From Escherichia coli (GTDB lineage: Bacteria > Pseudomonadota > Gammaproteobacteria > Enterobacterales > Enterobacteriaceae): a stretch of DNA of 64,000 nucleotides. Position numbers and translations under genes: made by a program. Position 1 is the stretch's first letter. Every line of letters starts with the position of its first letter. Shown one piece after another: positions 6,179-60,577 of the stretch. The stretch lies in assembly GCF_003018255.1 (NCBI RefSeq), contig NZ_CP027440.1; one strand, written 5' to 3'. Under the pieces are notes generated by a model. That model saw only the letters and a program-made list of their open reading frames with translations, did no database searches and had not been told where the DNA came from.

Positions 6179-6182
6179 TCAC

Positions 6183-25154: not shown

Positions 25155-27212
25155 TCAGAGCTTCAAAGTTTGCTCAATGTCTGGTGTTTTGTGGCACTCT
25201 TCCTCCGTCGTCAAGATGATGATGTCATCATTGGATGAAAACATGTTCTGATCCAGATTACGTGTCCTGGCCGGACAGGGCGATGCGGTTCGATAAAGTT
25301 GGCTACCGATCCAGGTATAAACATAGCGATTGTCATAAGCGAAACGTTCGGTGGTTTTCAATGGTCCATCAATAGCAAAAATTTGAATATCATCGCGTAA
25401 ACGGGAAGAGCGCATAAAGTAACCATGGCCTTTCCCGGCGTTAATCCGTTGTTTCAGGAAAGGTGCAGAAGAGTCGAGCGTTATTATTTCCAGGGTGTCT
25501 TCACCAAAAGGAGACAATTTCGCAATGTACAGATGATTTTTGTACTGCGCGACACGATCGGTGATGGGATGAAATGCTTTCGGGTCAATATCGGGGAGTT
25601 TCTCCCATTGACTCCATTGCTGGTCTGTAGAGCGAAGCTTACGCCAGCTAACATCGGTTTCGCCGACGAGAAAAGAGCCTTCGCCATCAGAATATTGAGC
25701 AATGTTAACGGATGAGTTATAGGGGATTCCCGTTGGAATAAACGCACCATCCTCAAGAAGTCTGCCGTCAAGCTCACCACTACGGTAGTTTGCCCAATAG
25801 CCATATCCTGAATCTTTGGTTTTCCATTTCACCCGCACGGCTTTGGTATTGGGAGTTGGGTAGCGCCAAAGCTGTGAGCCATCGAATGCGTAAACATAAC
25901 GATCGTCGTGTGCATACCATTTCTTGTAATGGGGGCTATCGCTAAGGTGAGCCTCATGCTCGTCAGGAACACGATAATCCATCAGGATAAGCGGCCCGGA
26001 AGAATCGAATACCTGGAGGCCATCTTCTTCTTCACCATCAGCTGGTAATTTGGTCAATAAATAGCCGTGAGTTCTTCCCGCGTTAAAGCGTTTATCTATC
26101 ACCAAACCAGGATTATCCAGTGTGACGATATTTAGCCTATTTTCGCCAAATCCCGTTTTTTTGATGGTGTACAGCTTGTCCTGATACTGAGCAACGGTAT
26201 TACTAAGAGGATGAAATTGTTCTGGATCGAGGCCGGGTAGGACTTCTTGCTGGCATTCTGGCCCTTTGCGCCATGAAACAGAGTGTTCCTGCAAAGTGAA
26301 CGCCGCGCAGCTATTTGCCCTATCTTTGTCCAGATTTCCCTGATTCAGCACCTTCCGGTGCAGGCCGCTTTTATCTCGCCAGGTTAATAACGAACCGGGC
26401 ATCCAGCGTACGACAGTAAATGTCTCTGGGTCGGCTTTAAGCTGTTCGCCATTGATTATGATTTTGGTCCGTGTACGGGCTAACGTATCCCAGGGGCCAA
26501 ATGGTACGGCAACGCAGGGGTTAAACGTGGTGGAAAACTTTCCTCGCTGATCCCAGGACTTCTGCGCCAGCACACGGAAACTCTCGGGGTCAGCGAGGCG
26601 ATGTCCATCGACATATAAGAAATTAGCGTCACGTAATATCAGCCCCAGAAAGTCAGGTTTCCAGGGGGAACGGAATTTCACCTGATGCAGCGTTTTAATA
26701 TCTAGACTATTTTCTCCGCCATTGTCATCGGTGCGCGTGCCTTCAAAATAGAGACTGTGTTTATCTGCGGCAAAATCACCCCATGCCTTGAACGAGGCGA
26801 CATCGACGGGAGGTTTGTCTGGCGGGTTTTGCACAACTTCACCCGCGTAGAGGATATAGCGACCATCGCTATGCCAGGAGTAATGAGGATACCAGGCCTG
26901 TGCGCCTTCATAGAGGTAGTCGGTTGTCAGATCAGTCAGAGGAGGTACTTTATCCCATTTGTCTAGTGTTGTCGGGTCTATTAATAAATTGGGTAAACGG
27001 CGCAAACTTTTGTAATTCACGTCAGGAAGAGAAAGATTTGTTTCTTTATAAGGGCGCAGGTATACCACGCCTTTTCCCTGTTTCTGGTAAATATTATGTT
27101 CAGGCGCGGAAAGCCGACATCCCCATGCCGACGATAAAAACAACGAACAAGACAACAAACAAACCACATTGCGAAAGTGCATAAAGCCATCCTGGCGCGA
27201 GGTGTTGATCAC
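25155..27212 (-). CDS. secreted DKNYY-repeat protein (accessory)
   Basis: 685 aa; ORF track start at 27212 is GTG, a more likely ATG with SD lies at 27182 (MHFRNVVCLLSCSLFLSSAWGC signal peptide); repeated motifs DxxYVY/DKxYY (DGRYILYAGE, DKHSLYFEG, DANFLYVDG, DDRYVYAFDG, YKNHLYIAK, YDNRYVYTWIG) characteristic of the DKNYY family; not part of the K-12 cyaY-yifL interval as I recall it. Confidence 0.6.
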   Translation of the reverse strand: MINTSRQDGFMHFRNVVCLLSCSLFLSSAWGCRLSAPEHNIYQKQGKGVVYLRPYKETNLSLPDVNYKSLRRLPNLLIDPTTLDKWDKVPPLTDLTTDYLYEGAQAWYPHYSWHSDGRYILYAGEVVQNPPDKPPVDVASFKAWGDFAADKHSLYFEGTRTDDNGGENSLDIKTLHQVKFRSPWKPDFLGLILRDANFLYVDGHRLADPESFRVLAQKSWDQRGKFSTTFNPCVAVPFGPWDTLARTRTKIIINGEQLKADPETFTVVRWMPGSLLTWRDKSGLHRKVLNQGNLDKDRANSCAAFTLQEHSVSWRKGPECQQEVLPGLDPEQFHPLSNTVAQYQDKLYTIKKTGFGENRLNIVTLDNPGLVIDKRFNAGRTHGYLLTKLPADGEEEDGLQVFDSSGPLILMDYRVPDEHEAHLSDSPHYKKWYAHDDRYVYAFDGSQLWRYPTPNTKAVRVKWKTKDSGYGYWANYRSGELDGRLLEDGAFIPTGIPYNSSVNIAQYSDGEGSFLVGETDVSWRKLRSTDQQWSQWEKLPDIDPKAFHPITDRVAQYKNHLYIAKLSPFGEDTLEIITLDSSAPFLKQRINAGKGHGYFMRSSRLRDDIQIFAIDGPLKTTERFAYDNRYVYTWIGSQLYRTASPCPARTRNLDQNMFSSNDDIIILTTEEECHKTPDIEQTLKL

Positions 27213-27291
27213 GAAACTGCTAGCAGAACATAAATCCTCACAAGTAAGCGTAACTCTCGCAGCAAATCGTCACTTTTCAGAATCCATAAAG
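27122..27291. repeat. direct repeat copy 1 (5' end and upstream region of DKNYY gene)
   Basis: About 170 bp that recur at 28208-28370 with high similarity (e.g. GAACAAGACAACAAACAAACCACATTGCGA...GCATAAAGCCATCCTGGCGCGAGGTG...CACGAAACT...ACTTTTCAGA). Confidence 0.85.
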
Positions 27292-27553
27292 GTCATCGCT
27301 ATTTTCTGATAGTTGCTGGAATAAACGTGATATTTTCATTCACGATATAAACACAATCCCGGAACTGCCCCATAGTACGGCTAATAGCATAAAAATATTC
27401 CGGATTGACCCCTGGAAGGGAGGCAATGTGGGATTCCGCCCCCCGTTGCCTTCTTTATTGTCTTTCACGAGTTGTACCCAGGTTCCACCACGGGTATCTA
27501 ACATTCGCCACATTATTACGCTTTCTGCCGAACGTGATTTTTATAGAAATCTA

Positions 27554-28108
27554 TCAATTCATTTTCCCTGTACCATAAAGTTTATCCTTCACATCCTGCC
27601 GAACGCGGGTCTTGTACCCCCCGTTGTGAAGATCTTCATACGGAGAAAAAGAATCTTTACTCCACCCCAGCAACACTTTATCGCCAGGCATAAAATGCAC
27701 GTGCAGGTAATTTTCTCCCCATTCTCTTTTTGGGAGAGGTAACGTCATATTGCGTTTCTCCAGACGCATTCCAGCATTATACTGTGTACGAGTAGTACTT
27801 AATGTCCATATAACCTCTGCCGTATCCCCACTGACATCACCGCAACAGGTGATTGAACCGCCACCATTCGCAAAAGCATTCGCGCCCGCCACGCCGTTAA
27901 CACTGAATCCCAGTATCGGACGGTCAATTTCACTGTGGATTTCCAGTATCACTCCACCTCTTGGTCCTCCCCATACTGCCTGTCCTATATTCCACAACAC
28001 GACCAGTACTGGAACGACAATTAACGTCCGCCATACCCAGCGCCCCCAGCGGGCATAACCGCGCGTAAGCTTTTGGTCAAATTTTTCCAGTTGGGTAAAT
28101 AGCCCCAT
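27554..28108 (-). CDS. DUF3304-like membrane-anchored protein (accessory)
   Basis: 184 aa; N-terminal TM helix (WRTLIVVPVLVVLWNIGQAVWG); Gly-rich core (GFSVNGVAGANAFANGGGSITCCGDVSG) resembling DUF3304 proteins; family assignment from memory. Confidence 0.5.
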   Translation of the reverse strand: MGLFTQLEKFDQKLTRGYARWGRWVWRTLIVVPVLVVLWNIGQAVWGGPRGGVILEIHSEIDRPILGFSVNGVAGANAFANGGGSITCCGDVSGDTAEVIWTLSTTRTQYNAGMRLEKRNMTLPLPKREWGENYLHVHFMPGDKVLLGWSKDSFSPYEDLHNGGYKTRVRQDVKDKLYGTGKMN

Positions 28109-34073: not shown

Positions 34074-34117
34074 CGTTGCGGGATGCGGTGCGCCACACCG
34101 CATTCCGCATCAGCACC

Positions 34118-35020
34118 TTACTTAGCGCACTTCTTCACATCAATATTCCAGTCAGCACCAGACGCAACCTGATGTTTCTGCGCAAAATTATCCATATTCA
34201 GCGCCACGGAAACATTCAATAAGCTGTTCAGATACACCATCGGCTGGCCTTCCGGCACATCGCCGAAGCTTGCGACATACGGCATTTTCCCTGCGTATTT
34301 TTGCTGGGAACCTTCGGAAATGGTCACACACAACGTGTCGTTGAGTTTGATTCCTGCCTGTTTCAGCAACTCGTCGCTGATATTGCTCCAGACGTTGCCG
34401 TACTGAATATCGAGAATCGGGATATTGCCCTTCACTTCACCTTTTGTTGCTTTTGCTTTCTGATAAGAAAGTTCGACAACTTTTGCAGGAAGCTCTGGCC
34501 CCACCTGTTCGAACGTAATCGCTCCGGAAGCCAGACGCGCACCAGTGTAGGCATATACATCGCGACCATGGAAGGTATATGACTTTTCAGAACCTTTCAG
34601 GCGGTTAGCTTTTTCGTCGATTTCCCGGACGCTATCAATACCCAGAGTTTGTGCCACCAAAGTGAGCGTACCGTTATCTGGTGAAACGAAGTATTGACCG
34701 TTTTTGGTTTTCAGCACTACCGATTTACGGTCAGTGCCTACGCCCGGATCGACCACGCTAACAAACACCGAACCTTGCGGCCAGTAACTGGCAGTCTGAT
34801 ACAGGCGATAAGCGCCTTCCCAGATGTTATACGGTGGAATTTCGTGTGTTAAATCAAAGATTTTAAGATTATGGTCAACGCCGAATGCGACCCCTTTCAT
34901 CGCCGAGACGGCACCATCTTTCAGGCTAAAATCCGTTTGTAAAATCAAAGCGTTATCCGCATAAGCGGATGATGACCCCAGACAGGTTAATAAAAATAAT
35001 GTTGCGAGCGTTTTTTTCAT
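34118..35020 (-). CDS. secreted SAM hydroxide adenosyltransferase-like protein (DUF62 family, accessory)
   Basis: 300 aa; signal peptide MKKTLATLFLLTCLGSSSAYA; N-terminal LQTDFSLKDGAVSAMKGV and C-terminal ILDIQYGNVWSNI motifs resembling the DUF62 fold (fluorinase/chlorinase-related); I do not recall a gene between uvrD and yigE in K-12. Confidence 0.55.
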   Translation of the reverse strand: MKKTLATLFLLTCLGSSSAYADNALILQTDFSLKDGAVSAMKGVAFGVDHNLKIFDLTHEIPPYNIWEGAYRLYQTASYWPQGSVFVSVVDPGVGTDRKSVVLKTKNGQYFVSPDNGTLTLVAQTLGIDSVREIDEKANRLKGSEKSYTFHGRDVYAYTGARLASGAITFEQVGPELPAKVVELSYQKAKATKGEVKGNIPILDIQYGNVWSNISDELLKQAGIKLNDTLCVTISEGSQQKYAGKMPYVASFGDVPEGQPMVYLNSLLNVSVALNMDNFAQKHQVASGADWNIDVKKCAK

Positions 35021-35102
35021 TTTTGTTTCCCTTCATTTATCTGATGATTTTCCAGCTGTGTAGCCAGCCCCAGTTTGTCTGGCCTCCTCGAGTGTACAAT
35101 GT

Positions 35103-35867
35103 TTAACCTTTCTGCTCGACGGAAATCATGGTGACAAAAGGATAGCGTTGCCACGGGATTGCCTCGCCTTTCATATACATATGTGAAATTGTGCCATCAA
35201 GATAAAGCAGCTGCCCAACGTTCAGTTTCGCTTTGGCATAACAGGCAAAATCATAAAAATTTGTCGCCTGCTGGCTCAACAAAAACACGGCGTTCCCATG
35301 TTTATTAATCCCAACACCGTTACGAATTTTACGTGAGGCGACGTTGGGATGAATACGCGGATTAATTACACCGTTTTCCATCAACAATGGCCCTGACTGC
35401 ACCGCAAACTGAATCTCTTTACTGGTTTTAAAGGCATCCAGACGAACGATGCCGACTTTATCTCCCGCGACATAAAACACTCCGCCAGGACGAATAAAGA
35501 AATTCCCTTCACCTGAAGCGAGATTTAACGCCACCTTCTGCTGACCGTTTTCGATGTACAAACCGAGCGGCGCATAGCTTTCATCATAGATGCCGCCGTT
35601 CATCGCCATCTGCACCTGACCCTGACTATTAATATCCGCCAGCAGAGCATGTAACGTTCCCCACGCTTCGCCATTGGCTTTTTGCCAGTACATTTTCACC
35701 CGCTCTGTTTGAGGATTAACGGTATACGCCTGTACGGTCAGCGTCGGATCTGAGGGTGCGCAATCATCAGCGGCAACAGCAAACAAGGGAAGTAAGGTGA
35801 GGGTGAGAAAAATCCGTTTGAGATTCAAGGTGATCATTCCTTTACCAATGAATAGCCGATGCGCCAT
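35103..35867 (-). CDS. yigE: DUF2233 protein YigE
   Basis: 254 aa with signal peptide; synteny upstream of corA. Confidence 0.75.
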   Translation of the reverse strand: MAHRLFIGKGMITLNLKRIFLTLTLLPLFAVAADDCAPSDPTLTVQAYTVNPQTERVKMYWQKANGEAWGTLHALLADINSQGQVQMAMNGGIYDESYAPLGLYIENGQQKVALNLASGEGNFFIRPGGVFYVAGDKVGIVRLDAFKTSKEIQFAVQSGPLLMENGVINPRIHPNVASRKIRNGVGINKHGNAVFLLSQQATNFYDFACYAKAKLNVGQLLYLDGTISHMYMKGEAIPWQRYPFVTMISVEQKG

Positions 35868-36236
35868 TATAGGCCCTGGATGTGGGATTTTTTTATCCTG
35901 TTAGCGACCTTGACGAGTACCAAAAAGCGCGAAGTTCAACTATTGTTCTGTGGTGTTCTGTTGCGTGTTGACGGCAAAATTTTGCTGGCGTAACATGCGC
36001 GCACGATCACTCTAAGAGGACATTCGCCTTGGACACACCCAGTAGATACTGGCTCACTATCCTGTCATCCAGGATCAACTCCTAAGGCTATCCCTTTTTG
36101 CTGATAGCCTTAGCGGTTGTCAGCGACCTCAATTTTTCCCGTCGCGCTGAGTCAGGCTGTTTAATGGTCTGAAACCCAATTTGTTTCTGTGTGCCCACCG
36201 AACTGTCCGATATTTTAAGCATTGGGAGTCCCGGTC

Positions 36237-37187
36237 ATGCTGAGCGCATTTCAACTGGAAAATAACCGACTGACCCGGCTGGAAGTCGAAGAGTCACAAC
36301 CCCTTGTAAATGCAGTATGGATTGATCTTGTCGAACCGGACGACGACGAGCGACTGCGCGTACAATCTGAACTTGGTCAGAGCCTGGCAACCCGCCCGGA
36401 ACTGGAAGACATCGAAGCATCGGCACGTTTCTTTGAAGACGATGACGGCCTGCATATTCACTCCTTCTTCTTCTTTGAAGATGCGGAAGATCACGCCGGT
36501 AACTCTACTGTGGCATTTACCATCCGTGATGGTCGTCTGTTTACTCTGCGTGAGCGTGAACTGCCTGCATTCCGTCTGTATCGTATGCGCGCCCGTAGCC
36601 AGTCAATGGTGGACGGTAACGCCTACGAGCTGCTGTTGGATCTGTTCGAAACCAAAATCGAACAGTTGGCGGATGAAATTGAAAACATCTACAGCGATCT
36701 GGAGCAGTTGAGCCGGGTGATTATGGAAGGGCATCAGGGCGATGAGTACGACGAGGCGCTCTCCACGCTGGCGGAACTGGAAGATATCGGCTGGAAAGTT
36801 CGCCTGTGTCTGATGGATACCCAGCGTGCGCTCAACTTCCTGGTACGTAAAGCACGCTTACCGGGTGGGCAACTGGAGCAGGCGCGTGAAATCCTGCGAG
36901 ATATCGAATCCCTGCTGCCGCATAACGAATCCCTGTTCCAGAAGGTGAACTTCCTGATGCAGGCGGCGATGGGCTTTATCAATATCGAGCAGAACCGCAT
37001 CATCAAAATCTTCTCGGTGGTATCCGTGGTGTTCCTGCCACCGACGCTGGTCGCTTCCAGCTACGGGATGAACTTTGAGTTTATGCCGGAACTGAAGTGG
37101 AGCTTCGGCTACCCAGGCGCGATTATCTTTATGATCCTCGCGGGCCTGGCACCGTATCTGTACTTTAAGCGGAAGAACTGGTTGTAA
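36237..37187 (+). CDS. corA: magnesium/cobalt transporter CorA
   Basis: 316 aa from ATG 36237 ([12 protein letters not shown]); C-terminal [11 protein letters not shown] with the GMN signature and two TM helices; long 5' leader upstream. Confidence 0.9.
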
Positions 37188-37222
37188 TATAAATGCCGGG
37201 TAAAGATTGTTCTTTATCCGGC

Positions 37223-37720
37223 TTATTGCTGAAAATTGTCTTTTTCAAAGTCATGCGGGTTGAACACTCGCTCTATCTTATTTTCCTGGGTTAGTTGATA
37301 CTCATTGTTATCAGCAATAAAAAAATGAGTATTACGGTAAGGATATTCATTAATAACCATTAAATAGTTTTTTACGATGCAATTATCATTGCTCTTAATC
37401 GTCGGGAAACAGTAGAGATCTTCATACGGCCCTTCGATATATTTTTTATAGTCAGTGAAGCCATTACCGATATCAATAACATACCAGGTATGCCAACTAC
37501 CTTCTGGTAGGGGATGTTGATTTTTAATTTCATTCTGACGCTTCAGATACCAATTTATTTTATCGCTGTCAGTCCATGGCAGATGATCAACGACCAGAAA
37601 GACTGAATTGCCAGCATCAGAGTATGTATACAAAATCTGTACAGGACGCAATGTCCATAAATTATAGATGCAGCATAGAAGAAATAAACATAATATAATT
37701 TTCTGGAGTTTGCTTTTCAT
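37223..37720 (-). CDS. DUF943-like small membrane protein (accessory, possible immunity-like partner)
   Basis: 165 aa, AT-rich codon usage; N-terminal TM helix (IILCLFLLCCIYNLW); start overlaps upstream gene stop (ATGA-type coupling at 37717-37720). Confidence 0.45.
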   Translation of the reverse strand: MKSKLQKIILCLFLLCCIYNLWTLRPVQILYTYSDAGNSVFLVVDHLPWTDSDKINWYLKRQNEIKNQHPLPEGSWHTWYVIDIGNGFTDYKKYIEGPYEDLYCFPTIKSNDNCIVKNYLMVINEYPYRNTHFFIADNNEYQLTQENKIERVFNPHDFEKDNFQQ

Positions 37721-38565
37721 AGATAATTTTCGATTCTTTCTATAGTGTTAAAATTGGTGAAAAAAGGTTTGAAAGCAAAGTCTTTATGCCGTTGTAAAAA
37801 GAACCATATGCGAAAAAATCTATATTTGCTATAAGTCTTGTTTTTGATATCAGTTACATCAAGACCGAAGTGGTCCTGTGCTACAAAATGAATTGTTGCA
37901 CTCCATCCTATAGCGTATTTTTGAAAACTTAAAAGAGATATTTTTTGAGCTGAAATATCATGAACACTGATTCCTAAGCCATTAAAACTGTCCTCGAAGT
38001 CATTAAATTTATTTAGTCTTGATGAAAGTAATTCGGTCTTAATCTTTTGTAGGAGAAGAGGCCGGTATCCTATCGTAGGTGTTGAAGAAATATCATTTTC
38101 GATACATTCTTTGATTACACGTATTGGGCTATTATAATCATATTTGTTTATTCGTTCATGAAAAGATAAGTTCAATTCCTGGCTATGGAAACTGTTGCCA
38201 TTTCCATATCTAAAATGATCAATCAGATCCTGGATGAGTGTTTTGTATTGTCCAAAAAAGGAAAACATTTTTGCCAGATCTTTCATTTCTGCAAATAAAA
38301 TATCAATACATTCACTTTGTGATATTTTTGTTCCAGAAGTTGGAACACTAAAAGCACCATAAGTAGAATTCGGCCCAGGAAAATGGTATTTAATGAGGCG
38401 GTAAGGATCAACTTTTGCAGAGATGTCGCTCAAGCCGAGTGAGAGAAAATCTTGTTCTTCCATATCCCCATATTGCATATCATCAGCAGAAAAATCATCG
38501 AATAAAGTAATAGTTTCGAAAAGTGTACAGGGCATATTAATTGATGAGCCTAATATGTTGTTCAT
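37717..38565 (-). CDS. DUF3289-like protein (accessory, function unknown)
   Basis: 282 aa, AT-rich; no signal peptide; sizes and sequence do not fit the K-12 yigF/yigG pair (~126 aa each, from memory) that occupies this corA-rarD slot; family assignment tentative. Confidence 0.45.
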   Translation of the reverse strand: MNNILGSSINMPCTLFETITLFDDFSADDMQYGDMEEQDFLSLGLSDISAKVDPYRLIKYHFPGPNSTYGAFSVPTSGTKISQSECIDILFAEMKDLAKMFSFFGQYKTLIQDLIDHFRYGNGNSFHSQELNLSFHERINKYDYNSPIRVIKECIENDISSTPTIGYRPLLLQKIKTELLSSRLNKFNDFEDSFNGLGISVHDISAQKISLLSFQKYAIGWSATIHFVAQDHFGLDVTDIKNKTYSKYRFFRIWFFLQRHKDFAFKPFFTNFNTIERIENYL

Positions 38566-38875
38566 TTATATTCTCCTTTCTTATAATTAAGGGCAATGTT
38601 AATTTGATAAGAAATAATAGGCTAAAAAAATTTTAAAAAAGAAATGCACTTCACATTTTTCATTACATTCTGAAGAGAACTTGGTTAATGATTGGTCTTG
38701 CTCATCGCTAATAACATAATGCTGAATTTACCAAAAATGAAATTTATTAAAGCAAATGAAAATATACAACGACGTCTGGAAATTCTGCCTTTCCTTATGT
38801 GAGTCTCCTGTCAGCATGGCAATATGCCCACTCTCATGCAAGAGTCGGCATATTTTTTCAGAATATATTTATTTT

Positions 38876-50782: not shown

Positions 50783-50818
50783 TGAGTATTAACGAGTCAT
50801 TGTAAATTGCAGTACGAT

Positions 50819-50846
50819 AATGGCTTCCAGTACTGGAAGCCATTTT
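50819..50846 (+). terminator. Rho-independent terminator after metE
   Basis: Hairpin AATGGCTTCCAG-TACT-GGAAGCCATT followed by TTTG. Confidence 0.7.
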
Positions 50847-50950
50847 GCATGAGTGCCAGATTGAAGCAGATCTTCAGGAGTAGAAATAACCGAATCGTTT
50901 TTTTCGCAAAACACAGTTTTGAGTGATTCCGTTCAGTAATCAACGCTACG

Positions 50951-51211
50951 TTATTTATTCTCACGTTGCACGAGATTGTATCCCTTTTCACTAACGTGGT
51001 AGTGAGGCATAGACTTATGCCCGCTATCCTCAATAATAACCAAACCTTCGTTAGCTAATTTGTTAACAATATTAACAATATTACCGAATCCTGGTATTTG
51101 CCTTATGGATAGTGTGCGATCGAGATTCATCCAGTTCCAGTTTATATCTTTCTCAGTCATAACGTTCAGCACGTTAAGTTCATTTTTAGTGATCACGATA
51201 TTCTGTACCAA
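50951..51211 (-). CDS. second paralog of putative immunity protein (possible orphan immunity)
   Basis: 86 aa; clearly paralogous to the 51271-51528 product (shared IVxxNxLxVMxEKDIxWxWMxLDRTLxIRxIPGFGNxxNIVxKLxNxGLVxI pattern); AT-rich. Confidence 0.55.
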   Translation of the reverse strand: MVQNIVITKNELNVLNVMTEKDINWNWMNLDRTLSIRQIPGFGNIVNIVNKLANEGLVIIEDSGHKSMPHYHVSEKGYNLVQRENK

Positions 51212-51270
51212 AATTGATGAGTATCTTATTGAAAGATCACAATGTAAATCATGCTCCTGTAATGGCTGGA

Positions 51271-51528
51271 TCAGAAGAGGTTGTCTTGTTGTTCTTTGAT
51301 AAGATTCAATCCATATTGAGAAACTCTGTAGCGTGGTTTAGAGTTGCCCTCACCATTTACGATATCAACCAACCCATGATTAACCAGCTTTGTTACGATA
51401 TTCGCTACGTTGCCAAATCCTGGAATATTTCGTATAGCTAAAGTACGATCCAGCACCATCCAGCTCCAGTCAATATCTTTCTCAGCCATAACTTTCAGCA
51501 CGTTAAATTCAACTATCGTAATCGTCAT
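51271..51528 (-). CDS. putative cognate immunity protein of the Hcp-fusion effector
   Basis: 85 aa; start codon overlaps the stop of the upstream Hcp-fusion gene (ATGA at 51525-51528), the arrangement typical of effector-immunity pairs. Confidence 0.55.
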   Translation of the reverse strand: MTITIVEFNVLKVMAEKDIDWSWMVLDRTLAIRNIPGFGNVANIVTKLVNHGLVDIVNGEGNSKPRYRVSQYGLNLIKEQQDNLF

Positions 51529-52658
51529 TTTTTTGCATCCGGATGAAATAAGTCAGTATCTTTAATTTTAAAGTCTTCTAGAGTTGCAGTATGTACATTA
51601 TTCCATAATTCATATCCATCTAAACCTTTCGGTTCACCTGTTTCCCATCCTAAATTACAATAACGCTGATACTCGCGACATTCATGAGTATAGTAGTTCA
51701 GATCGTATTTTTCAGGAAGCAATTCTTTATTTGCTATTTTCTTTAGCCTTGAAATCATTACATCATTAGCTGGATCATGATCAAATCTGGAGATATGCTT
51801 TTCAACAATAGCGATACCTTCCCTGTTGATTGTTACGCCATCTATCGTCAGGTTTTCAATTGGACCACCGGCAAGGTCGGGATTAAATGGTCTTCCTGAT
51901 ACTGCTCCTCTGGCTCCGAAATGCTCAAGTGATTCCAAATCAGGGAATCTCATTCTTCCCAGAACAACTCCAGCAACTATTGAAGCACCAGCGATGAGTA
52001 ACCCTTTGTTATCCATAACTTGATCGTAACCAGCAGGTGCATCTCCTCCCAACTTGTTTGCTGTTTCCCTGAATCCTTCGATATTCCCATTGTATATGCC
52101 GCCAGCAGCAAGCAGTCTGCCAACCGCTTTACTATTGAGTGTTTTGAGGCCATTATCATCTTTAGTTTTTGGCCGTGGTATAAACAGACGGTTGTAGTTA
52201 TCGGGAAATGCCAAATAACTAAATTCAGTATTAGCAATCAGATGCCTGGAGAGTATATATTCATAACTGGCAGTGATGGTTTCTGTATCCAGATTGTTCT
52301 CAGTAAACAGGTGATTGATTGCTGATAAGAGCGCGCCGCGGAGTTGAATGTTGTAATATTTCTCCCATCGACCAAATCTATTGATCCGATAGAAGTCAAA
52401 CTCCATGAACAACTGCTCGTTATTGTTAATAGCGTTAATAAGTAACGGGGAGCTTTTGTCAATCAACTTACAGAAACTAAGGCCATGTAATTGTGACCCT
52501 TTGCCTGTATTCGTAATACTATTAGATAGCGAGAACGCGAAGATTTCATCTTCATGGCCAATCTGCCAGCGATTACCTATTGATGCGCTCGTTCCGCAAC
52601 GAGAGGAAATACATCCTTGTTGTTCTCCGGTTATGGTCAGGTAAATAATATCACTCAT
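51525..52658 (-). CDS. Hcp-domain protein with C-terminal extension (candidate T6SS Hcp-effector fusion, Hcp-ET-like)
   Basis: 377 aa; N-terminal ~165 aa match the Hcp tube-protein signature (YLTITGEQQG...DEIFAFSLSNSITNTGKGS...LSFCKLIDKSSPLLINA; compare Hcp FIKIGDVKGES...IDVLAWSWG...LSFTKYIDKSTPNL); ~210 aa C-terminal extension of unrecognised fold; AT-rich. Confidence 0.7.
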   Translation of the reverse strand: MSDIIYLTITGEQQGCISSRCGTSASIGNRWQIGHEDEIFAFSLSNSITNTGKGSQLHGLSFCKLIDKSSPLLINAINNNEQLFMEFDFYRINRFGRWEKYYNIQLRGALLSAINHLFTENNLDTETITASYEYILSRHLIANTEFSYLAFPDNYNRLFIPRPKTKDDNGLKTLNSKAVGRLLAAGGIYNGNIEGFRETANKLGGDAPAGYDQVMDNKGLLIAGASIVAGVVLGRMRFPDLESLEHFGARGAVSGRPFNPDLAGGPIENLTIDGVTINREGIAIVEKHISRFDHDPANDVMISRLKKIANKELLPEKYDLNYYTHECREYQRYCNLGWETGEPKGLDGYELWNNVHTATLEDFKIKDTDLFHPDAKK

Positions 52659-53049
52659 CCTTGAAAAACCTTTTGTTAATTCTTTTGTGAAAGAAAAATA
52701 GTATTGTTATTTTTTACCTTTATTTACGCCCAAAAGGGATGAACTAAAATGTGAAAAACAAAATGTTTCACTTTAATATCTTTTTATCAGGAAGGTCTGA
52801 GATAATTTATAATTAATGTGAATGTGTTGATAATAATTAATGTTTGTTTGAGAATGGGAGTTGATGGTAAATCTCTAAGGTGTCTGCCAGTGAAGAGACT
52901 CATTTATGACTATGACTTGCCGACTTTCTTAAGGTCAAATAGCGGAGTCGTGCTCTCCAATCAATTCATACTGATTATTTTTTGGGGGACAGAGATGGCA
53001 GCAAAATGCACTCGTTCACTCACCATCTCAAATATAGACTAAGAGGAAA

Positions 53050-54123: not shown

Positions 54124-54888
54124 ATGTCCAAGTCTGATGTTTTTCATCTCGGCCTCACTAAAAACGATTTACAAGGGGCTACGCTTGCCATCGTCCCTGG
54201 CGACCCGGATCGTGTGGAAAAGATCGCCGCGCTGATGGATAAGCCGGTTAAGCTGGCATCTCACCGCGAATTCACCACCTGGCGTGCAGAGCTGGATGGT
54301 AAACCTGTTATCGTCTGCTCTACCGGTATCGGCGGCCCGTCTACCTCTATTGCTGTTGAAGAGCTGGCACAGCTGGGCATTCGCACCTTCCTGCGTATCG
54401 GTACAACGGGCGCTATTCAGCCGCATATTAATGTGGGTGATGTCCTGGTTACCACGGCGTCTGTTCGTCTGGACGGCGCGAGCCTGCACTTCGCACCGCT
54501 GGAATTCCCGGCTGTCGCTGATTTCGAATGTACGACTGCGCTGGTTGAAGCGGCGAAGTCAATTGGTGCCACCACTCACGTTGGTGTGACGGCTTCTTCT
54601 GATACCTTCTACCCGGGTCAGGAACGTTACGATACTTACTCTGGTCGCGTAGTTCGTCACTTTAAAGGTTCTATGGAAGAGTGGCAGGCGATGGGCGTAA
54701 TGAACTATGAAATGGAATCTGCAACCCTGCTGACCATGTGTGCAAGTCAGGGCCTGCGTGCCGGTATGGTAGCGGGGGTTATCGTTAACCGCACCCAGCA
54801 AGAGATCCCGAATGCTGAGACGATGAAACAAACCGAGAGCCATGCGGTGAAAATCGTGGTGGAAGCGGCGCGTCGTCTGCTGAAATAA
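54124..54888 (+). CDS. udp: uridine phosphorylase
   Basis: 253 aa from ATG 54124 ([35 protein letters not shown]); PNP/UDP family. Confidence 0.9.
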
Positions 54889-54913
54889 AAAACGCTCCCC
54901 AACTTCGGGGAGC
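54889..54913. terminator. hairpin terminator shared by udp and the convergent tct operon
   Basis: GCTCCCC-AACTTC-GGGGAGC hairpin; the T-run lies on the minus-strand side (complement of AAAAAACG), so it is best placed to terminate the minus-strand tct operon. Confidence 0.6.
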
Positions 54914-54921
54914 GATATCAG

Positions 54922-56412
54922 TTACTGACGCCGTAAACGCATTATTTTGCGGATTATTGGCGTCAGTAGCGTAAAGGCTGCCAGAGTTAGCAATGCCAGA
55001 GTGATCGGTCGGGTATACAGAAAGTCCAGTGAACCCCCTGAAAGCGACAGCGCACGGCGAAAATTACTTTCTGCCATCGGGCCCATAATCAATGCCAGCA
55101 CTACGGGTGATGCCGGATATCCTCCTTTCTGCATGAAATAGCCCACCACGCCTGCAATCAGCATAATGCCAACATCAAACAGGCTATTGTTCAACGCATA
55201 AGTCCCGACCACACAAAGTGCGAGGATCATCGGTGTGAGAATATTGCCGGGGATCTTCACCACGTTACCGATGACTTTCAAAGAGAGCAGTCCAAGAACT
55301 AGCAGCATGAAGTAACAAAAGATCATGCCGACAAACAGTGTATAAACCATATCGCCGTGGTCGGTAAACATCAGCGGGCCTGGTTGCATTCCCTGTAACG
55401 TTAACGCGCCCAGCATGATGGCGGTTACCGCATCGCCAGGGATCCCCAGCGTCAGCATAGGTAACAATGCGCCACCGGTGCAGCCATTCGCGCCTGCCTC
55501 ACAGGAGGCCACAGCTTTAATTTCACCCTTACCAAAGTTTTCTGGTGTCTTACTGAAACGACGAGTTTCGTTATAGGCAACAAAAGCTGCAATATCCGCC
55601 CCCGCACCGGGGATCATGCCGATAAAAACCCCTAATCCTGATGAGCGCAAAATGGTTAATGCAATGCGGCGTAGTGTTTGCCAGGGCAGTAACAGACTGC
55701 CGATAGCCACCTTCGCCCCCTGACGAATTTGCTGGTTTTGCTCCATAGAGCGGAATGCTTCTGAAGCAGCAAATAAACCAATCATCACCGGGATAAATGG
55801 CACATTCATCAGCTCCACAAATCCACCTGTAAACCGTGGAAAACCGCCCATTGGATCAAGGCCTATCGTTGCGATCAGCAATCCGCCAACCCCGGCAATC
55901 AGCCCTTTAATCAGCGACTCACCGGAAATACTGGCAATAATACTCAGTCCGAAGGTTGCCAGGGCGAAGGACTCCGAGGCACTAAATTTCAGCGCCCAAC
56001 TGGCAAGTACCGGAGAGAGAAACATCAGCACGATAATGCTGAGCGTTCCGCCACTAAAGGAAGAGAACGTGGCGGCACTCAATGCCAGCCCTGCTTTTCC
56101 CTGTTTCGTCAGCTCATAACCATCAATAGCGGTGGCTGCGGCGGCAGGCGTTCCGGGAATTTTGAGCAAAATTGCGGTGATAGAACCACCGTAGACGCCA
56201 CCAAAAAAGACGCCGCAAATCATCAACAAGCCAGAAACAGGCTCCATGCCGTAGGTGAAAGGCAGCAAAATCGCCACACCCATGGTCGCTGTCAGACCAG
56301 GCAAAGCGCCAATCACAATACCCAGCATCACCCCAAAAGTGGCAAACAGCAGCGCCTGAGGATTATTGAGTAATGTCGAAAAACCCTGAGTTAAAAGTTC
56401 ACTTTCAAACAT
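54922..56412 (-). CDS. tctA: tripartite tricarboxylate transporter large permease
   Basis: 496 aa, many TM helices; TctA-family features (GAITAILLKIPGTPAAAAT, GMIPGAGADIAAFVAYNE). Confidence 0.75.
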   Translation of the reverse strand: MFESELLTQGFSTLLNNPQALLFATFGVMLGIVIGALPGLTATMGVAILLPFTYGMEPVSGLLMICGVFFGGVYGGSITAILLKIPGTPAAAATAIDGYELTKQGKAGLALSAATFSSFSGGTLSIIVLMFLSPVLASWALKFSASESFALATFGLSIIASISGESLIKGLIAGVGGLLIATIGLDPMGGFPRFTGGFVELMNVPFIPVMIGLFAASEAFRSMEQNQQIRQGAKVAIGSLLLPWQTLRRIALTILRSSGLGVFIGMIPGAGADIAAFVAYNETRRFSKTPENFGKGEIKAVASCEAGANGCTGGALLPMLTLGIPGDAVTAIMLGALTLQGMQPGPLMFTDHGDMVYTLFVGMIFCYFMLLVLGLLSLKVIGNVVKIPGNILTPMILALCVVGTYALNNSLFDVGIMLIAGVVGYFMQKGGYPASPVVLALIMGPMAESNFRRALSLSGGSLDFLYTRPITLALLTLAAFTLLTPIIRKIMRLRRQ

Positions 56413-56424
56413 TGCTGGCCCCTG

Positions 56425-56934
56425 TTATTCGAAAAATGTGCCGACAGGCAATGGCACCTGTAACGCTTCGACAAACAGCAACCAGAGGATTGCCGTTAAC
56501 AGCAGCGCAATACCCGGTGTGAGTACCCATCGCCTGTAGCCCATCAACGTCATAATGACGATGAGGAAAACAGGAGTAGTAATGAGATAACCGCAGTAGC
56601 TCATCGCCACAATATAAAACGCGGTTGCCGCAATTCCTGTTGCTGTTTTCCTGAATGCCGGTTTTTCCTGTGCGTTGGCGCAAGAGGCTGGTTTTGCCTG
56701 CAAAAGATCGCGTATCACCAGCAAGACAGCGAGCACAATCAGGGCACAGGCATAGAAGGTAGGGAAGGCACTTGCACCGGGATCCGTTTCAATGGCAGTT
56801 GCTGGAAAATCAGCGGCATTAATCATCACCGCGCCAGCAACCACACAAAGTAACAGCGCCACCACCATCGTTGATGAAAGGCGCTTGCGGTGCGGTACGG
56901 CGAGTTGAGCAACAGACTGTTTTGTGTTCATCAA
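56425..56934 (-). CDS. tctB: tripartite tricarboxylate transporter small membrane subunit
   Basis: 169 aa with 4 TM helices, between tctC-like and tctA-like genes. Confidence 0.65.
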   Translation of the reverse strand: MMNTKQSVAQLAVPHRKRLSSTMVVALLLCVVAGAVMINAADFPATAIETDPGASAFPTFYACALIVLAVLLVIRDLLQAKPASCANAQEKPAFRKTATGIAATAFYIVAMSYCGYLITTPVFLIVIMTLMGYRRWVLTPGIALLLTAILWLLFVEALQVPLPVGTFFE

Positions 56935-56947
56935 CCGTACCTCAGGT

Positions 56948-57922
56948 TTATTTTTTCAGGCCCAGGCGAGTCAGCAACTCGTCAAAGTACTTTTCCTGTT
57001 CGCTGATTTGGGTCTGGAAGCTGGCAGCGTCAAGCCATGCATAGTTGAGATTCAACTTTTGCAGTGCATCCTGGAATGCAGGCTCTTCAGCCGTCTCTTT
57101 TGCTGCCTTTGCCAGAACATCCACCACATCCTGCGGCGTTTTTTGCGACACAATCAGGCCGCGCCAGGTGCCGATGGAGAGATCAACGCCTTTCTCTTTT
57201 AACGTCGGGACGTCAGGCATGGTTTTCATTCGCTCATCCGCCATCACTACCAGTGTCTTCAGCTTGCCGCCATTCACATGGTTGATAACTTCTCCTGGGC
57301 TTACGGAAACCGCTTCAATATGCCCGCCTAACAGGCCTGTAATGGCAGGGGCTGCGCCGTCATACGGGACATGAGAAAACTTTGTGCCCGTTTTGTCTTC
57401 CAGTGCAGCTGCCGCCAGATGCCAGATAGCTCCGGTGCCTGAGTTACCAATGCGTACTTTTCCGGGATTCGCTTTGGAGTAAGCCATAAATTCTTCATAG
57501 CTATTCCACGGCGCATCGGCACGGACTGTGATAGCAGCCGGATCCGCATTCAGACGGGCAATGGGTTTAAAGTCGCTGGTTTTAAAACGCACCATTCCGA
57601 GGCTGGGAAGGGTGGTCAGTTCAACCGTGCCTAAACCAATTTTGTAACCGTTAGGGCGGGCAGCGGCGATTTCACTCAGGCCGATAGCACCGCCTCCGCC
57701 AGGTTTATTGATAACCCCGATGCTGACGGGTAAATGGTTTTTGGCGGCATCAGCAAAGGCACGGGCAACCAGATCCGTACCGCCTCCGGCAGCGTAGGGA
57801 ACGACTAACTCGATCTGTTTGGTTGGGTAGGAGGCAGCCTGTACAGGCGCAATGCTGAGGGCAGCGCCTGCAAGAAGTACCATTGCAGCCATTTTTTTCG
57901 GTAAGGTAAGATGTTTTATCAT
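56948..57922 (-). CDS. tctC: tripartite tricarboxylate transporter periplasmic substrate-binding protein (Bug/TctC family)
   Basis: 324 aa; signal peptide; Bug-family architecture (IELVVPYAAGGGTDLVAR, GNSGTGAIWHLAA). Confidence 0.75.
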   Translation of the reverse strand: MIKHLTLPKKMAAMVLLAGAALSIAPVQAASYPTKQIELVVPYAAGGGTDLVARAFADAAKNHLPVSIGVINKPGGGGAIGLSEIAAARPNGYKIGLGTVELTTLPSLGMVRFKTSDFKPIARLNADPAAITVRADAPWNSYEEFMAYSKANPGKVRIGNSGTGAIWHLAAAALEDKTGTKFSHVPYDGAAPAITGLLGGHIEAVSVSPGEVINHVNGGKLKTLVVMADERMKTMPDVPTLKEKGVDLSIGTWRGLIVSQKTPQDVVDVLAKAAKETAEEPAFQDALQKLNLNYAWLDAASFQTQISEQEKYFDELLTRLGLKK

Positions 57923-57946
57923 TGCTTTTATATCCTTATTTATCAG

Positions 57947-58576
57947 TTAGTTGCTATTTAAATTGTTCCATGCGTTCATAAACAGTACTGCATTTTCATA
58001 GACTTGCTCTGGCGTCATGCCGGGGCGATATAGCGCAGAACCGAGGCCAAAGCCGTTTGCGCCGTGGCTCAGATAACGCGCCATGGTTTCCGGTGTGATA
58101 CCGCCAACCGGTAACATCGGAACGGATTGTGGAATAACCGCACGCCAGGCTTTGGTAACTTCTGGCGTAATTTGTTCAGCCGGGAACAGCTTGATGGCAT
58201 TAGCACCATGTTCAATGGCAGCAAAGGCTTCGGTGGGCGTGGCGACGCCAGGCGCACAATACATACCCAGCGCACGGGCGCGACGGATCACCGCAGTATC
58301 GCAATGCGGCATCACGATAATCTGGCCCCCAGCCTCTTTAACCGCAACCACCTGCTCTACCGAAAGCACAGTTCCGGCTCCGACCAGGCAGTCCTTAGGC
58401 AGGGCGTCGCGCAGTAAACTGATACTTTGCAACGCCTCCGGCGAGTTCATAGGAATCTCAATCAGGCGGAATCCGGCGGCGTACAGTTTTTCACCGATGG
58501 CGACAATCTCATCCGGTTTCACGCCGCGTAAAATGGCGACTAACCCGGTTTTTTGCAAAAGTGTATTAAATGGCAT
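57947..58576 (-). CDS. 2-dehydro-3-deoxy-6-phosphogalactonate (KDPGal) aldolase-like
   Basis: ORF track starts at 58651; ATG at 58576 with SD (MPFNTLLQKTGLVAILRGVKPDE) aligns along its length with remembered E. coli DgoA (KLPLIAILRGITPDE...EIPLNSP...GAGTVL...VGGVTPEN). Confidence 0.75.
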   Translation of the reverse strand: MPFNTLLQKTGLVAILRGVKPDEIVAIGEKLYAAGFRLIEIPMNSPEALQSISLLRDALPKDCLVGAGTVLSVEQVVAVKEAGGQIIVMPHCDTAVIRRARALGMYCAPGVATPTEAFAAIEHGANAIKLFPAEQITPEVTKAWRAVIPQSVPMLPVGGITPETMARYLSHGANGFGLGSALYRPGMTPEQVYENAVLFMNAWNNLNSN

Positions 58577-59570
58577 GGGTACATTCCCTGGCGTTGGTGG
58601 ACAGTAACCCGGCAGCGTGGGCGATTCGCCATAATCCATGTTCAGTGGCATTAGGAATGGCGTGTATCTGTCTGTCGGGAAAAACGTGGCTGAATGCTTG
58701 TGAATAGCGGCTGTTCAGATTTGCGCTACCGATTAAGGCGATCGGTGTTGTGGCGGGTAAATCACGTAGCAAACTGGATGCCAGACCACATAATTCATGG
58801 CCTATCAGTAATCCGGAAAGGTAATCCCCCTGCGAGGACGACGTAAGATTACTGGTCAGCAGGCGCGAACGGGTCGAAAACAGCGTCGATAATAATCCGG
58901 TCTGATGATGCTCTTGTGCTGCTGTCAGCCCGTGGGTGAAGGCATCCCAGTGCGGTTCATCTCCAGGATGCATGGTGGCACCGAGAATCGAATGGCGGGA
59001 TAAAACATCAAATAACTCGCCCGTCATAAAGGTTCGGAAATCGGTAATGGTGTTGTTTTCAACTACTGCCCATTTCGCATGTGTGCCGGGTAAGCCTATC
59101 AGCACTGGCATACCCTGATGGATCGCGTTTTGCAGGGCCGGTTCCATCGAGATAGCACCGAAGATTTGTGTCTCTTCGCCACGCATCACTTCGGGCATTT
59201 CACCTTCTTTAATCACGCCAGGAATGATGTGCAGCATTGTCTGCTGCTGGTGGATAACAGGCGTCAACTGCTTCGCCAGACCCTCGAGAGTGACCGGGCA
59301 AGGTAAATAAGCTGCTGATTGCCACCCTTGCGCACTGCCGAGCATGCCGCAAGCCAGTACCGGGCATGGGGTTTGTGCCAGCCAGTCGCCGCAGACACGT
59401 AAAAACGTATCGTGGAAAGCGTCCTCACGTGTTGCTGCCTGGGAGGGTAATTTCATGATCCCCCAGGGGAATTCACGTTTTTCTTGTGGATTTGGTGATT
59501 CGCCAAAACGCCATGCCCGAAGCGATGACGTTCCCCAGTCCAGGGCAATAAATGAGGGTGCTCCCGGCAT
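58566..59570 (-). CDS. 2-dehydro-3-deoxygalactonokinase-like
   Basis: 334 aa; IALDWGTSSLRAW and VMRGEETQIFGA motifs match DgoK (IAIDWGSTNLRAW, VMRGEETQLIGA); 3' end overlaps the aldolase start. Confidence 0.75.
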   Translation of the reverse strand: MPGAPSFIALDWGTSSLRAWRFGESPNPQEKREFPWGIMKLPSQAATREDAFHDTFLRVCGDWLAQTPCPVLACGMLGSAQGWQSAAYLPCPVTLEGLAKQLTPVIHQQQTMLHIIPGVIKEGEMPEVMRGEETQIFGAISMEPALQNAIHQGMPVLIGLPGTHAKWAVVENNTITDFRTFMTGELFDVLSRHSILGATMHPGDEPHWDAFTHGLTAAQEHHQTGLLSTLFSTRSRLLTSNLTSSSQGDYLSGLLIGHELCGLASSLLRDLPATTPIALIGSANLNSRYSQAFSHVFPDRQIHAIPNATEHGLWRIAHAAGLLSTNARECTHAI

Positions 59571-59593
59571 TAGTCGTTTCCTTTAATCATGGT

Positions 59594-60361
59594 TTATTTA
59601 TCTTTGCGGACGTGCTTACCCCAGCCCAGTTCAGCGGATATCTCTTCTGCACAGGATTTGACGTAAGGTGCCAGTTCTTCCAGACGCGCCAGCGACATAT
59701 ACGTGGTGGTACTGGCGACAGAAATAGCCGCCACAATTTCATCCCGGGCGTTGTAAACCGGCGCTGCAACGCAACGGATAGTCGGCTCGTTCTCTTCCAG
59801 ATCAAAAGCAAAACCACTGGCGGCATAACGACGCATGTTCTGAATAAATGCGCCCAGTTTTGTTTCATCACCACAGGTCTTAAACAGCGTGCGCCACTCT
59901 TCTTCTGTTCGGTTGAGGATCAATGCCTTGCCGATGCCGGTGATTGCCAGTGGCATGCGATGGCCTGGGCGTGAGCGCATTTCCAGCCCGCGCTGACTGT
60001 TGATCTTCTCCAGATACAGCACTTCGTCGCCTTCAACGATCCCCAGATGCACGGTGTCCAGGGTGTAACGGGCAAGGCGTTGCAAAACGGGCTGGGCAAT
60101 TTCGTACAGTGAGGTGCTTTCCAGTGCTCTGGCACCGAATTCGATCAGTTTGGCACCCAGTTGGTAGCCCTGCGTTGGGACATGGCGCAGGTAGCGTTGT
60201 TCCACCAGAACGGTGACTAAACGATGGGTTGTGCTCCGGGTCGTGCCGGTGAACTCGCCGATACTTTTTAGGTCATGGCAGCCGTTATAAACAGCATTAA
60301 GAACCGCCAGTCCACGTAATAACGTTTGTGCGCCTGCGGTGGTTGAAGAGGTTTCTGCCAT
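59594..60361 (-). CDS. IclR/KdgR-family transcriptional regulator
   Basis: ORF track starts at 60535; ATG at 60361 with AGGAG SD (MAETSSTTAGAQTLLRGLAVLNAV) gives ~255 aa; N-terminal winged HTH and C-terminal effector domain laid out as in KdgR. Confidence 0.7.
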   Translation of the reverse strand: MAETSSTTAGAQTLLRGLAVLNAVYNGCHDLKSIGEFTGTTRSTTHRLVTVLVEQRYLRHVPTQGYQLGAKLIEFGARALESTSLYEIAQPVLQRLARYTLDTVHLGIVEGDEVLYLEKINSQRGLEMRSRPGHRMPLAITGIGKALILNRTEEEWRTLFKTCGDETKLGAFIQNMRRYAASGFAFDLEENEPTIRCVAAPVYNARDEIVAAISVASTTTYMSLARLEELAPYVKSCAEEISAELGWGKHVRKDK

Positions 60362-60422
60362 ACGTTTCTCCTGATGATATTGCTGAAGTGTTCCACATAA
60401 TGACGTGGGGAAAAGGTGATAT

Positions 60423-60458
60423 ATCCCACAATATAAACTCCATCTCATATTGTGGGAT
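60423..60458. promoter_or_regulatory. perfect inverted repeat, candidate operator of the IclR-family regulator
   Basis: ATCCCACAATAT-N12-ATATTGTGGGAT, 12-bp perfect arms, 60-100 bp upstream of the regulator start and about 120 bp upstream of rmuC. Confidence 0.4.
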
Positions 60459-60577
60459 AAAATAATGAAAATTAACGATCGTTTTGCGTAGCGCCTCGCA
60501 GGAAATGCCTTTCCAACTGGACGTTTGTACAGCACAATTCTATTTTGTGCGGGTAAGTTGTTGCGTCAGGAGGCGTT

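Follow-up and report, generated by a model that had tools for sequence, protein, structure and literature searches.

In the 64 kb stretch of the Escherichia coli chromosome analyzed here, which runs from wecA to ubiJ and is referred to as the window, an accessory island between udp and rmuC carries a single operon encoding an IclR-family regulator, a DGOK-family kinase, a DgoA-like aldolase and the TctC, TctB, and TctA subunits of a tripartite tricarboxylate transporter (TTT). The balance of the evidence tips modestly towards the explanation that this operon works as a self-contained unit under IclR control and salvages a six-carbon 2-keto-3-deoxy sugar acid that has been dehydrated beforehand, which in E. 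coli would most likely be 2-keto-3-deoxygalactonate (KDGal). The acid would be caught in the periplasm by TctC, carried over the inner membrane by TctAB, phosphorylated at C6 by the DGOK-family kinase, and finally split into central metabolites. Its water would already have been lost, either to the dehydratase of another organism or by lyase-type β-elimination, and the operon would therefore need no dehydratase of its own. The ligand, the effector of the regulator, and the physiological source are the parts of this explanation that we infer.

The udp–rmuC island and its operon

Comparison with strain MG1655 by blastn showed that homology over the udp–rmuC region stops at position 54886 and restarts at position 60482, with the island standing in place of 43 bp of the K-12 spacer, the udp terminator included (Table 1). 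Of the 5426 complete E. coli genomes, 1457 (~ 27%) carried the island, and 1417 of those 1457 copies were at least 99% identical. Carriers include the extraintestinal pathogens IHE3034 and APEC O2-211 and, judging from its tctA protein accession, presumably also UTI89. Strain HS-02 was found to contain only an 81%-identical fragment of the kinase–regulator end, adjoining udp (NZ_CP172818.1, 3914424-3915636), which could represent either a remnant or an allele that has diverged.

The genes form one tight minus-strand operon in the order IclR regulator, kinase, aldolase, TctC, TctB, TctA, with intergenic distances of −11 to 24 nt and a promoter region of its own, and the terminator hairpin at its end is convergent with udp. 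A perfect inverted repeat upstream of the regulator gene is a candidate operator, and several relatives (E. whittamii, Buttiauxella, Brenneria, and an Acetobacteraceae locus) have kindred TCCCA(C/T) palindromes upstream of their own regulator genes. Comparison with E. whittamii, Buttiauxella, and Klebsiella indicated purifying selection on all six genes, with ratios of nonsynonymous to synonymous substitution (dN/dS) of 0.01–0.24. Within that range the values were 0.01–0.04 for TctA, which is 86–91% identical in Klebsiella and Buttiauxella, and 0.14–0.24 for the kinase. Conservation inside the operon was unequal: with Buttiauxella and Klebsiella as the comparison, TctC and TctA were 81–91% identical, the kinase 49–59%, and TctB 50–60%.

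An earlier reading made from the DNA letters alone (the sequence-only reading) had proposed that positions 57947-59570 encode the kinase and aldolase steps of a sugar acid pathway, and this was confirmed, since the region holds two minus-strand genes that match their family profiles, the aldolase gene overlapping the kinase stop by 11 nt. The kinase matched PF05035 over its full length (model positions 1–281 of 281). It shares 34% identity with E. coli DgoK, and alignments to that protein and to the structures PDB 3R1X and 3T69 revealed the shared DgoK motifs DWG[TS], MRGEETQ, PGTHxKW, and TGEL. The aldolase gave 322 bits with the NCBIfam model NF006600, for which the cut-off is 207, and 136 bits with the eda model, for which it is 156, and so lies above cut-off only for the DgoA subfamily of 2-keto-3-deoxy-6-phosphogalactonate (KDPGal) aldolases. 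It is 45% identical to E. coli DgoA and keeps the equivalents of the Schiff-base Lys126, Glu37, and Arg14 (E. coli DgoA numbering). The start of the aldolase used here is the RefSeq site, and the 234-amino acid open reading frame (ORF) from 58651 is probably too long. The regulator scored 143 bits with BhcR and 130 bits with KdgR, both under the NCBIfam cut-off, and an alternative 313-amino acid ORF for this protein crosses the island border.

The three components of a TTT are encoded together in the island, and the cluster representative of TctC, which is 98% identical to the island protein, matched PF03401. The founding member of the TTT family transports citrate or tricarboxylates; in this case, the gene context argues for a sugar acid as the predicted ligand.

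The sequence-only reading had further claimed that the cluster lacks a DgoD/GarD-type dehydratase. None was present in the island or in the 64 kb window, as judged by annotation and by tblastn. The tblastn search of the window returned zero matches for DgoD, an Acidovorax DgoD-type enzyme (an enolase-superfamily dehydratase), UxaA, GarD, UxuA, IlvD/Edd, and a dihydrodipicolinate synthase (DHDPS)-type enzyme. Near-identical genomes had no sugar acid dehydratase annotated across the whole window, and the sole dehydratase named in the window annotation is that of rffG, dTDP-glucose 4,6-dehydratase, which is unrelated. A dehydratase gene of the same operon, which that reading had considered might lie immediately beyond, was not seen either: the operon is flanked by the housekeeping genes udp and rmuC and closes with its own terminator hairpin, and therefore has no extra member just outside.

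Table 1. Coordinates of the island, its six genes, and its putative control elements in the 64 kb window.
Feature	Position	Strand	Description and evidence
Accessory island	54887-60481		5595 bp between udp and rmuC; blastn versus MG1655
Operon terminator	54893-54914	−	GC-rich hairpin, 9-bp stem with 7 GC pairs, then T-run; tail TTTTTTATTT
TctA	54922-56412	−	TTT large membrane subunit, 496 amino acids; Pfam PF01970, 506 bits
TctB	56425-56931	−	TTT small membrane subunit, 168 amino acids; Pfam PF07331, 77 bits
TctC	56948-57922	−	Bug-family periplasmic binding protein, 324 amino acids, signal peptide, Tyr43; PDB matches
DgoA-like class I aldolase	57947-58576	−	209 amino acids; NCBIfam NF006600, DgoA alignment
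DGOK-family 2-keto-3-deoxy-hexonate kinase	58566-59570	−	334 amino acids; PF05035, 298 bits
IclR-family regulator	59594-60361	−	255 amino acids, KdgR/BhcR-like; NCBIfam
Candidate operator	60422-60459		Perfect 13-bp inverted repeat TATCCCACAATAT / ATATTGTGGGATA, 12-nt spacer; upstream of the IclR regulator gene

Related loci, accessory enzymes, and the binding protein

To account for the lack of a dehydratase, the sequence-only reading had offered import of an already dehydrated 2-keto-3-deoxy acid as one possibility, and this is favored by the gene context across species, by the accessory enzymes, and by residue 43 of TctC. A genome scan with a TctC alignment, taking one genome per species, yielded 80 loci with an orthologous TctC, and these were sorted by tblastn with reference proteins. 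Proteobacterial loci with kinase, aldolase, and TTT but no DgoD were the largest group (43 loci). Another four loci have a genuine DgoD, 60–63% identical to E. coli DgoD and scoring 712 bits on the equivalog NF010624, and in each of these it is encoded between the aldolase and TctC genes. Firmicute loci, whose TctC orthologues are 47–67% identical, combine TctCBA with an aldolase of the Eda type and a KdgK of the PfkB type (15 loci). In the clostridial loci (five loci), the partners are a DGOK-family kinase, an Eda-subfamily aldolase, a short-chain dehydrogenase/reductase (SDR), and a KduI with an equivalog score of 401 bits. The other 13 loci are truncated or of other types.

When all 80 loci were searched by tblastn with reference dehydratases of five families (UxuA, UxaA, GarD, DgoD, a second DgoD-type enzyme, IlvD/Edd, and a DHDPS-type enzyme), only three extra, distant matches were obtained in proteobacterial loci, all at least 8 kb from TctC, together with one UxaA in a Firmicute hexuronate cluster. 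The same six genes, again with no dehydratase, occupy the same udp–rmuC site in Buttiauxella and Klebsiella spallanzanii, and other sites in Brenneria, Rhodoferax, Azospirillum, and Enterobacter, and this architecture is kept down to ~ 48% kinase identity. Because the same six genes recur in several genera and at several sites, the dehydratase-less architecture is not accidental.

Thirty-one of these 43 proteobacterial modules also contain an accessory SDR gene (28 loci), an SMP-30/regucalcin-like gene, or both. The SDR aligned with A1-R and A1-R' of Sphingomonas sp. A1 free of gaps over 258 residues, at 60–67% identity and 340–350 bits. A1-R reduces DEH, a keto-deoxy uronate released by lyases (the pathway is reviewed in PMC8778563). 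The nearest database relatives of A1-R, which are 65–83% identical, come from the same taxa as the carriers of the module, and in Polaromonas an A1-R-like gene lies beside the IclR, DGOK, and aldolase genes even where there is no TTT. Among homologues placed on a contig, the one nearest to the Sphingomonas A1-R, at 83% identity, is an orphan. Throughout the TctC orthogroup, a keto-deoxy-hexonate kinase and an aldolase are the constant partners, and the feeder enzymes, which vary, have keto-deoxy uronates released by lyases as their substrates rather than aldonates.

A different reading of the SDR and SMP-30-like genes, as the galactose dehydrogenase and lactonase of a De Ley–Doudoroff pathway, was rejected because the SDR, so close to A1-R over its full length, is only 27–29% identical to the SDRs of a Burkholderia De Ley–Doudoroff cluster, which are themselves no closer than 27–29% to A1-R. 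The SMP-30/regucalcin-like (SGL) gene is found after tctA in 20 of the 28 A1-R-linked loci and in three others (for example, locus L015, 13142-14050), and its product might open or interconvert cyclic uronate forms. The modules of Enterobacter, Citrobacter, and Lelliottia have instead a divergent gene pair, one gene for an Fe-dependent alcohol dehydrogenase and the other for an additional DGOK-family kinase only distantly related to the first (locus L008, 5079-7258; loci L016 and L019, ~ 6000-7250), with a second IclR gene downstream.

The closest solved structure to TctC was that of Polaromonas Bpro_3516 (PDB 4X9T, 339 bits), which is of the Tyr43 type. This is an apo structure with no known ligand (PMC5812351) and so gives no functional information. 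The second-closest match, at 220 bits, was Vibrio TTT-C (PDB 25HK), a protein that binds unsaturated alginate oligosaccharides and has been mapped by mutagenesis, the Phe19Ala substitution abolishing binding (PMC13390454). Residue 43 of TctC, a tyrosine in E. coli, aligns with Phe19 of TTT-C, and the equivalents of TTT-C Gly24, Thr25, Asp26, Pro104, Gly183, Thr225, and Arg227 are all kept in TctC. A GAIWHLA loop is retained in TctC and shortened in TTT-C.

In the candidate pocket segments there is almost no variation between the proteobacterial, clostridial, and Bacillus-type groups. Residue 43 was tyrosine or phenylalanine in 76 of the 77 sequences without DgoD and threonine at all four DgoD-linked loci, where TctC was also altered at positions 99 and 258. 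The four DgoD-linked proteins fall into two pairs, which are 52–55% identical to one another, and since each pair is closer to Tyr-type proteins (58–63% identity), the Thr43 change seems to have arisen independently at least twice. One reading of these alignments is that residue 43 acts as a ligand switch that accompanies the dehydratase, with Thr43 selecting aldonates and Tyr43 or Phe43, the E. coli protein included, selecting dehydrated acids. The sole other TctCBA system with Thr43 (locus L047, 7435-14202) is encoded without a kinase or an aldolase, beside a GntR gluconate-repressor equivalog and a metallo-dependent hydrolase, and may be an aldonate-specific TTT.

The identity of the acid was approached through the kinase and aldolase families. 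In a neighbor-joining tree, the enterobacterial TTT-linked kinases grouped with those of the Burkholderia/Acidovorax De Ley–Doudoroff clusters, which carry the KDGal kinase annotation, and with the DgoD-linked kinases of Bordetella and Kerstersia, while the A1-R-linked kinases formed a separate clade. Because it is among KDGal kinases that the E. coli enzyme falls, and the aldolase family points the same way, KDGal is the likeliest predicted substrate and thus the most likely ligand for the E. coli version of the system. The C4 epimer, 2-keto-3-deoxygluconate (KDG), is the main alternative, and a keto-deoxy uronate is possible. Note that DGOK-family kinases occur also in KduI and A1-R contexts. 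E. coli K-12 is reported to be unable to use KDGal solely for want of uptake (Cooper 1978), a point in favor of salvage.

Position 154 of the aldolase was considered as a marker separating KDPGal aldolases from KDPG (2-keto-3-deoxy-6-phosphogluconate) aldolases. This residue is reported by Walters et al. 2008 to be valine in DgoA and threonine in KDPG aldolase. The Val154 equivalent is present in the island aldolase, and the marker follows the family of the partner kinase. It fails in the clostridial KduI operons, however, and position 154 is not diagnostic because the Eda-subfamily aldolases of those operons also have valine.

Weighing the explanations

Several points count against a salvage operon for KDGal or a related acid. 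The first is that the stereochemistry is incoherent across the family. Reduction of DEH by A1-R and the KduI/KduD route both lead to KDG, and reduction of DKI, the lyase product of pectin and glycosaminoglycans, would give L-KDGal, but the annotation of both enzyme families, kinase and aldolase, names KDGal. Neither reduction route yields D-KDGal, and this reasoning therefore does not account for the chemistry of the A1-R-linked modules; either the kinase and aldolase tolerate both C4 epimers or their specificity is set by unseen features. Comparison of alignment positions identified no residue that separates DgoD-linked from A1-R-linked kinases or aldolases, and the Thr43 signature is based on four loci representing two lineages. 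In the gut, free KDGal is not known to have any established natural source outside the cell. A literature search yielded no experimental study of the E. coli island, only a tctA entry in a transcriptome table and general reviews, and a genomic reconstruction assigned D-galactonate uptake to a locus of TTT, IclR, and dgoK genes (Leyn et al. 2017, PMC5507952). Finally, an in-trans dehydratase is at hand, because dgoD is encoded elsewhere in a near-identical genome.

It could be, then, that the TTT imports D-galactonate or another fully hydroxylated aldonate, that the unlinked DgoD makes KDGal from it, and that the island adds high-affinity uptake and further kinase and aldolase capacity. A dehydratase encoded elsewhere and feeding the pathway was the second possibility offered by the sequence-only reading, and such a dehydratase does exist. 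In a genome 99.8–100% identical over the region, a canonical dgoRKADT operon, dgoD included, lies ~ 150 kb away; that operon has a GntR-type regulator, a kinase, an aldolase, and a transporter of its own. The presence of this dgoD, the genuine DgoD inside four related loci, the published prediction of D-galactonate uptake, and the grouping of the island kinase with DgoD-linked kinases are all consistent with aldonate import. However, 39 of the 43 proteobacterial kinase–aldolase–TTT loci have no dehydratase homologue within 10 kb, and the module moves between genera without one. Moreover, the DgoD-linked TctC proteins differ at residue 43 and two more positions, E. coli being in the other state, and the island kinase and aldolase would be redundant because the dgo operon already supplies both activities. 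Aldonate import is for these reasons considered rather unlikely.

A distinctly unlikely alternative is that the TTT takes up a 4-deoxy-5-keto-uronate produced by lyases (either alginate-derived DEH or the DKI that comes from pectin or glycosaminoglycans), which unlinked KduI/KduD or an aldehyde reductase would convert to KDG, the island enzymes being KDG and KDPG enzymes despite their names. E. coli does possess kduI, kduD, kdgK, and eda. The frequent linkage of an A1-R-type reductase to the module (28 loci), and its association in Polaromonas with IclR, DGOK, and aldolase genes in the absence of a TTT, would fit such a route, as would the Fe-dependent alcohol dehydrogenase adjoining the module in Citrobacter, Lelliottia, and Enterobacter and the joining of a DGOK-family kinase to KduI in the clostridial operon. 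The binding protein is also compatible with it, in that the candidate pocket residues of TctC are near-identical between E. coli and the A1-R-linked loci and the second-closest solved relative binds unsaturated alginate oligosaccharides. Against this, a reductase gene is missing from the E. coli island, whose kinase belongs to the KDGal-pathway clade and not to the A1-R-linked clade, and whose aldolase passes the cut-off for the DgoA subfamily only. In addition, KdgT, KdgK, and Eda already serve E. coli for that route (KdgK and Eda of E. coli are stated in PMC8778563).

That the island is the decaying, non-functional remnant of a larger dgo-type cluster from which the dehydratase was lost is very improbable and largely refuted, for although the kinase is 59% identical to that of Buttiauxella and the transporter 88–91%, all six ORFs are intact with their catalytic residues kept, dN/dS is low throughout (0.01–0.24), nearly all E. 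coli copies (1417 of 1457) have 99% identity or more, and the six-gene architecture persists to ~ 48% kinase identity.

The salvage explanation may be extended to the whole family, and here we put forward a tentative proposal, possible rather than probable. A Tyr/Phe43-type TctC, a DGOK-family kinase, and a DgoA-like aldolase together might constitute an undescribed, widespread scavenging route for free DEH, DKI, KDG, and KDGal, to which different lineages have added A1-R, an Fe-dependent alcohol dehydrogenase, KduI, or DgoD with a retuned binding protein. E. coli strains with the island would have a stripped-down version suited to cross-feeding on acids from polysaccharide-degrading gut bacteria, and some ‘DgoK/DgoA’ names would hide KDG-specific or bispecific enzymes. 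If the operon does salvage keto-deoxy sugar acids, the island would open a nutrient niche on products set free by other microbes, be it from galactonate, glycosaminoglycans, pectin, alginate, or carrageenan. A new ligand class would be added to the TTT family, for most members of which the ligand is not known, together with a testable Tyr43/Thr43 specificity switch, and the name-only annotation of hundreds of proteobacterial ‘galactonate’ genes would be corrected. The island is among the accessory metabolic loci that set ~ 27% of E. coli genomes apart from K-12-like strains.

Other features of the window and comparison with known systems

Three low-GC segments were also observed elsewhere in the window. 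The first (50800-53000, ~ 45% GC) lies between metE and ysgA, genes that are adjacent in K-12. It contains a minus-strand ORF of 377 amino acids (51525-52658), in which residues 1–147 match the Hcp/TssD domain of type VI secretion (124 bits) and the other ~ 230 amino acids form a C-terminal extension, and two small unannotated ORFs come after it at 51271-51528 and 50951-51211. The arrangement resembles an orphan fusion of Hcp to a toxin, possibly with immunity genes. In APEC O2-211, a different insertion is found beyond ysgA, on the side of the Hcp segment, with arcC, DUF1116, fdrA, DUF2877, and cysteine hydrolase genes (locus L001, 1-4800, a stretch seen short of metE), and the ysgA-side junction looks like a variable hot spot. 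The second segment (25155-28108), between cyaY and lptM, encodes a 685-amino acid hypothetical protein and a DUF3304 protein according to the annotation of a near-identical genome. The third (34100-38600, 42–48% GC) has genes of the SAM hydrolase/halogenase, DUF943, and YPO3983 families around yigE and corA.

The island was compared with known systems. Like E. coli dgoRKADT, it has adjacent, overlapping genes for a DGOK-family kinase and a DgoA-subfamily aldolase, leading to pyruvate and glyceraldehyde-3-phosphate. Unlike dgoRKADT, it has no DgoD, an IclR regulator in place of the GntR/FadR-type DgoR, and a TTT in place of the major facilitator superfamily permease DgoT. With DgoD, DgoR, and DgoT all missing, the island falls outside the canonical dgo operon type.

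A likeness in logic alone is seen with the KDG salvage units, namely kdgT, kdgK, and eda under the IclR-family KdgR in enterobacteria, and kdgRKAT in Bacillus subtilis. In these systems, too, a transporter, a kinase, and an aldolase handle a dehydrated keto-deoxy acid without a dehydratase, and in the enterobacterial case the regulator is also of the IclR type. The island differs from them in that its kinase is of the DGOK family and not PfkB, its aldolase is of the DgoA subfamily, its transporter is a TTT and not KdgT, and its genes form a single operon.

The alginate systems share individual components with the island or its relatives. An orthologue of A1-R, from the alginate monomer pathway of Sphingomonas sp. 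A1 (A1-R, KDG kinase, and KDPG aldolase), occurs in the related proteobacterial modules, and the alginate locus of Vibrio sp. C42 includes TTT-C (25HK), the second-closest solved match to TctC. Unlike both, the E. coli island has neither reductase nor lyases, and its kinase and aldolase are of other families. The TTT, IclR (GalR), and dgoK locus of Salinivirga fredricksonii HL-109 is made of the same gene families as the island (PMC5507952). Unlike the island, however, that locus is an incomplete De Ley–Doudoroff cluster in which, by the description given in the paper, a dehydratase is apparently kept (PMC5507952), and it probably corresponds to the Thr43/DgoD type and not to the E. coli type. 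The predicted salvage logic of the E. coli island is a known one, realized here with proteins of other families, namely an IclR regulator, a DGOK kinase, a DgoA-like aldolase, and a TTT.

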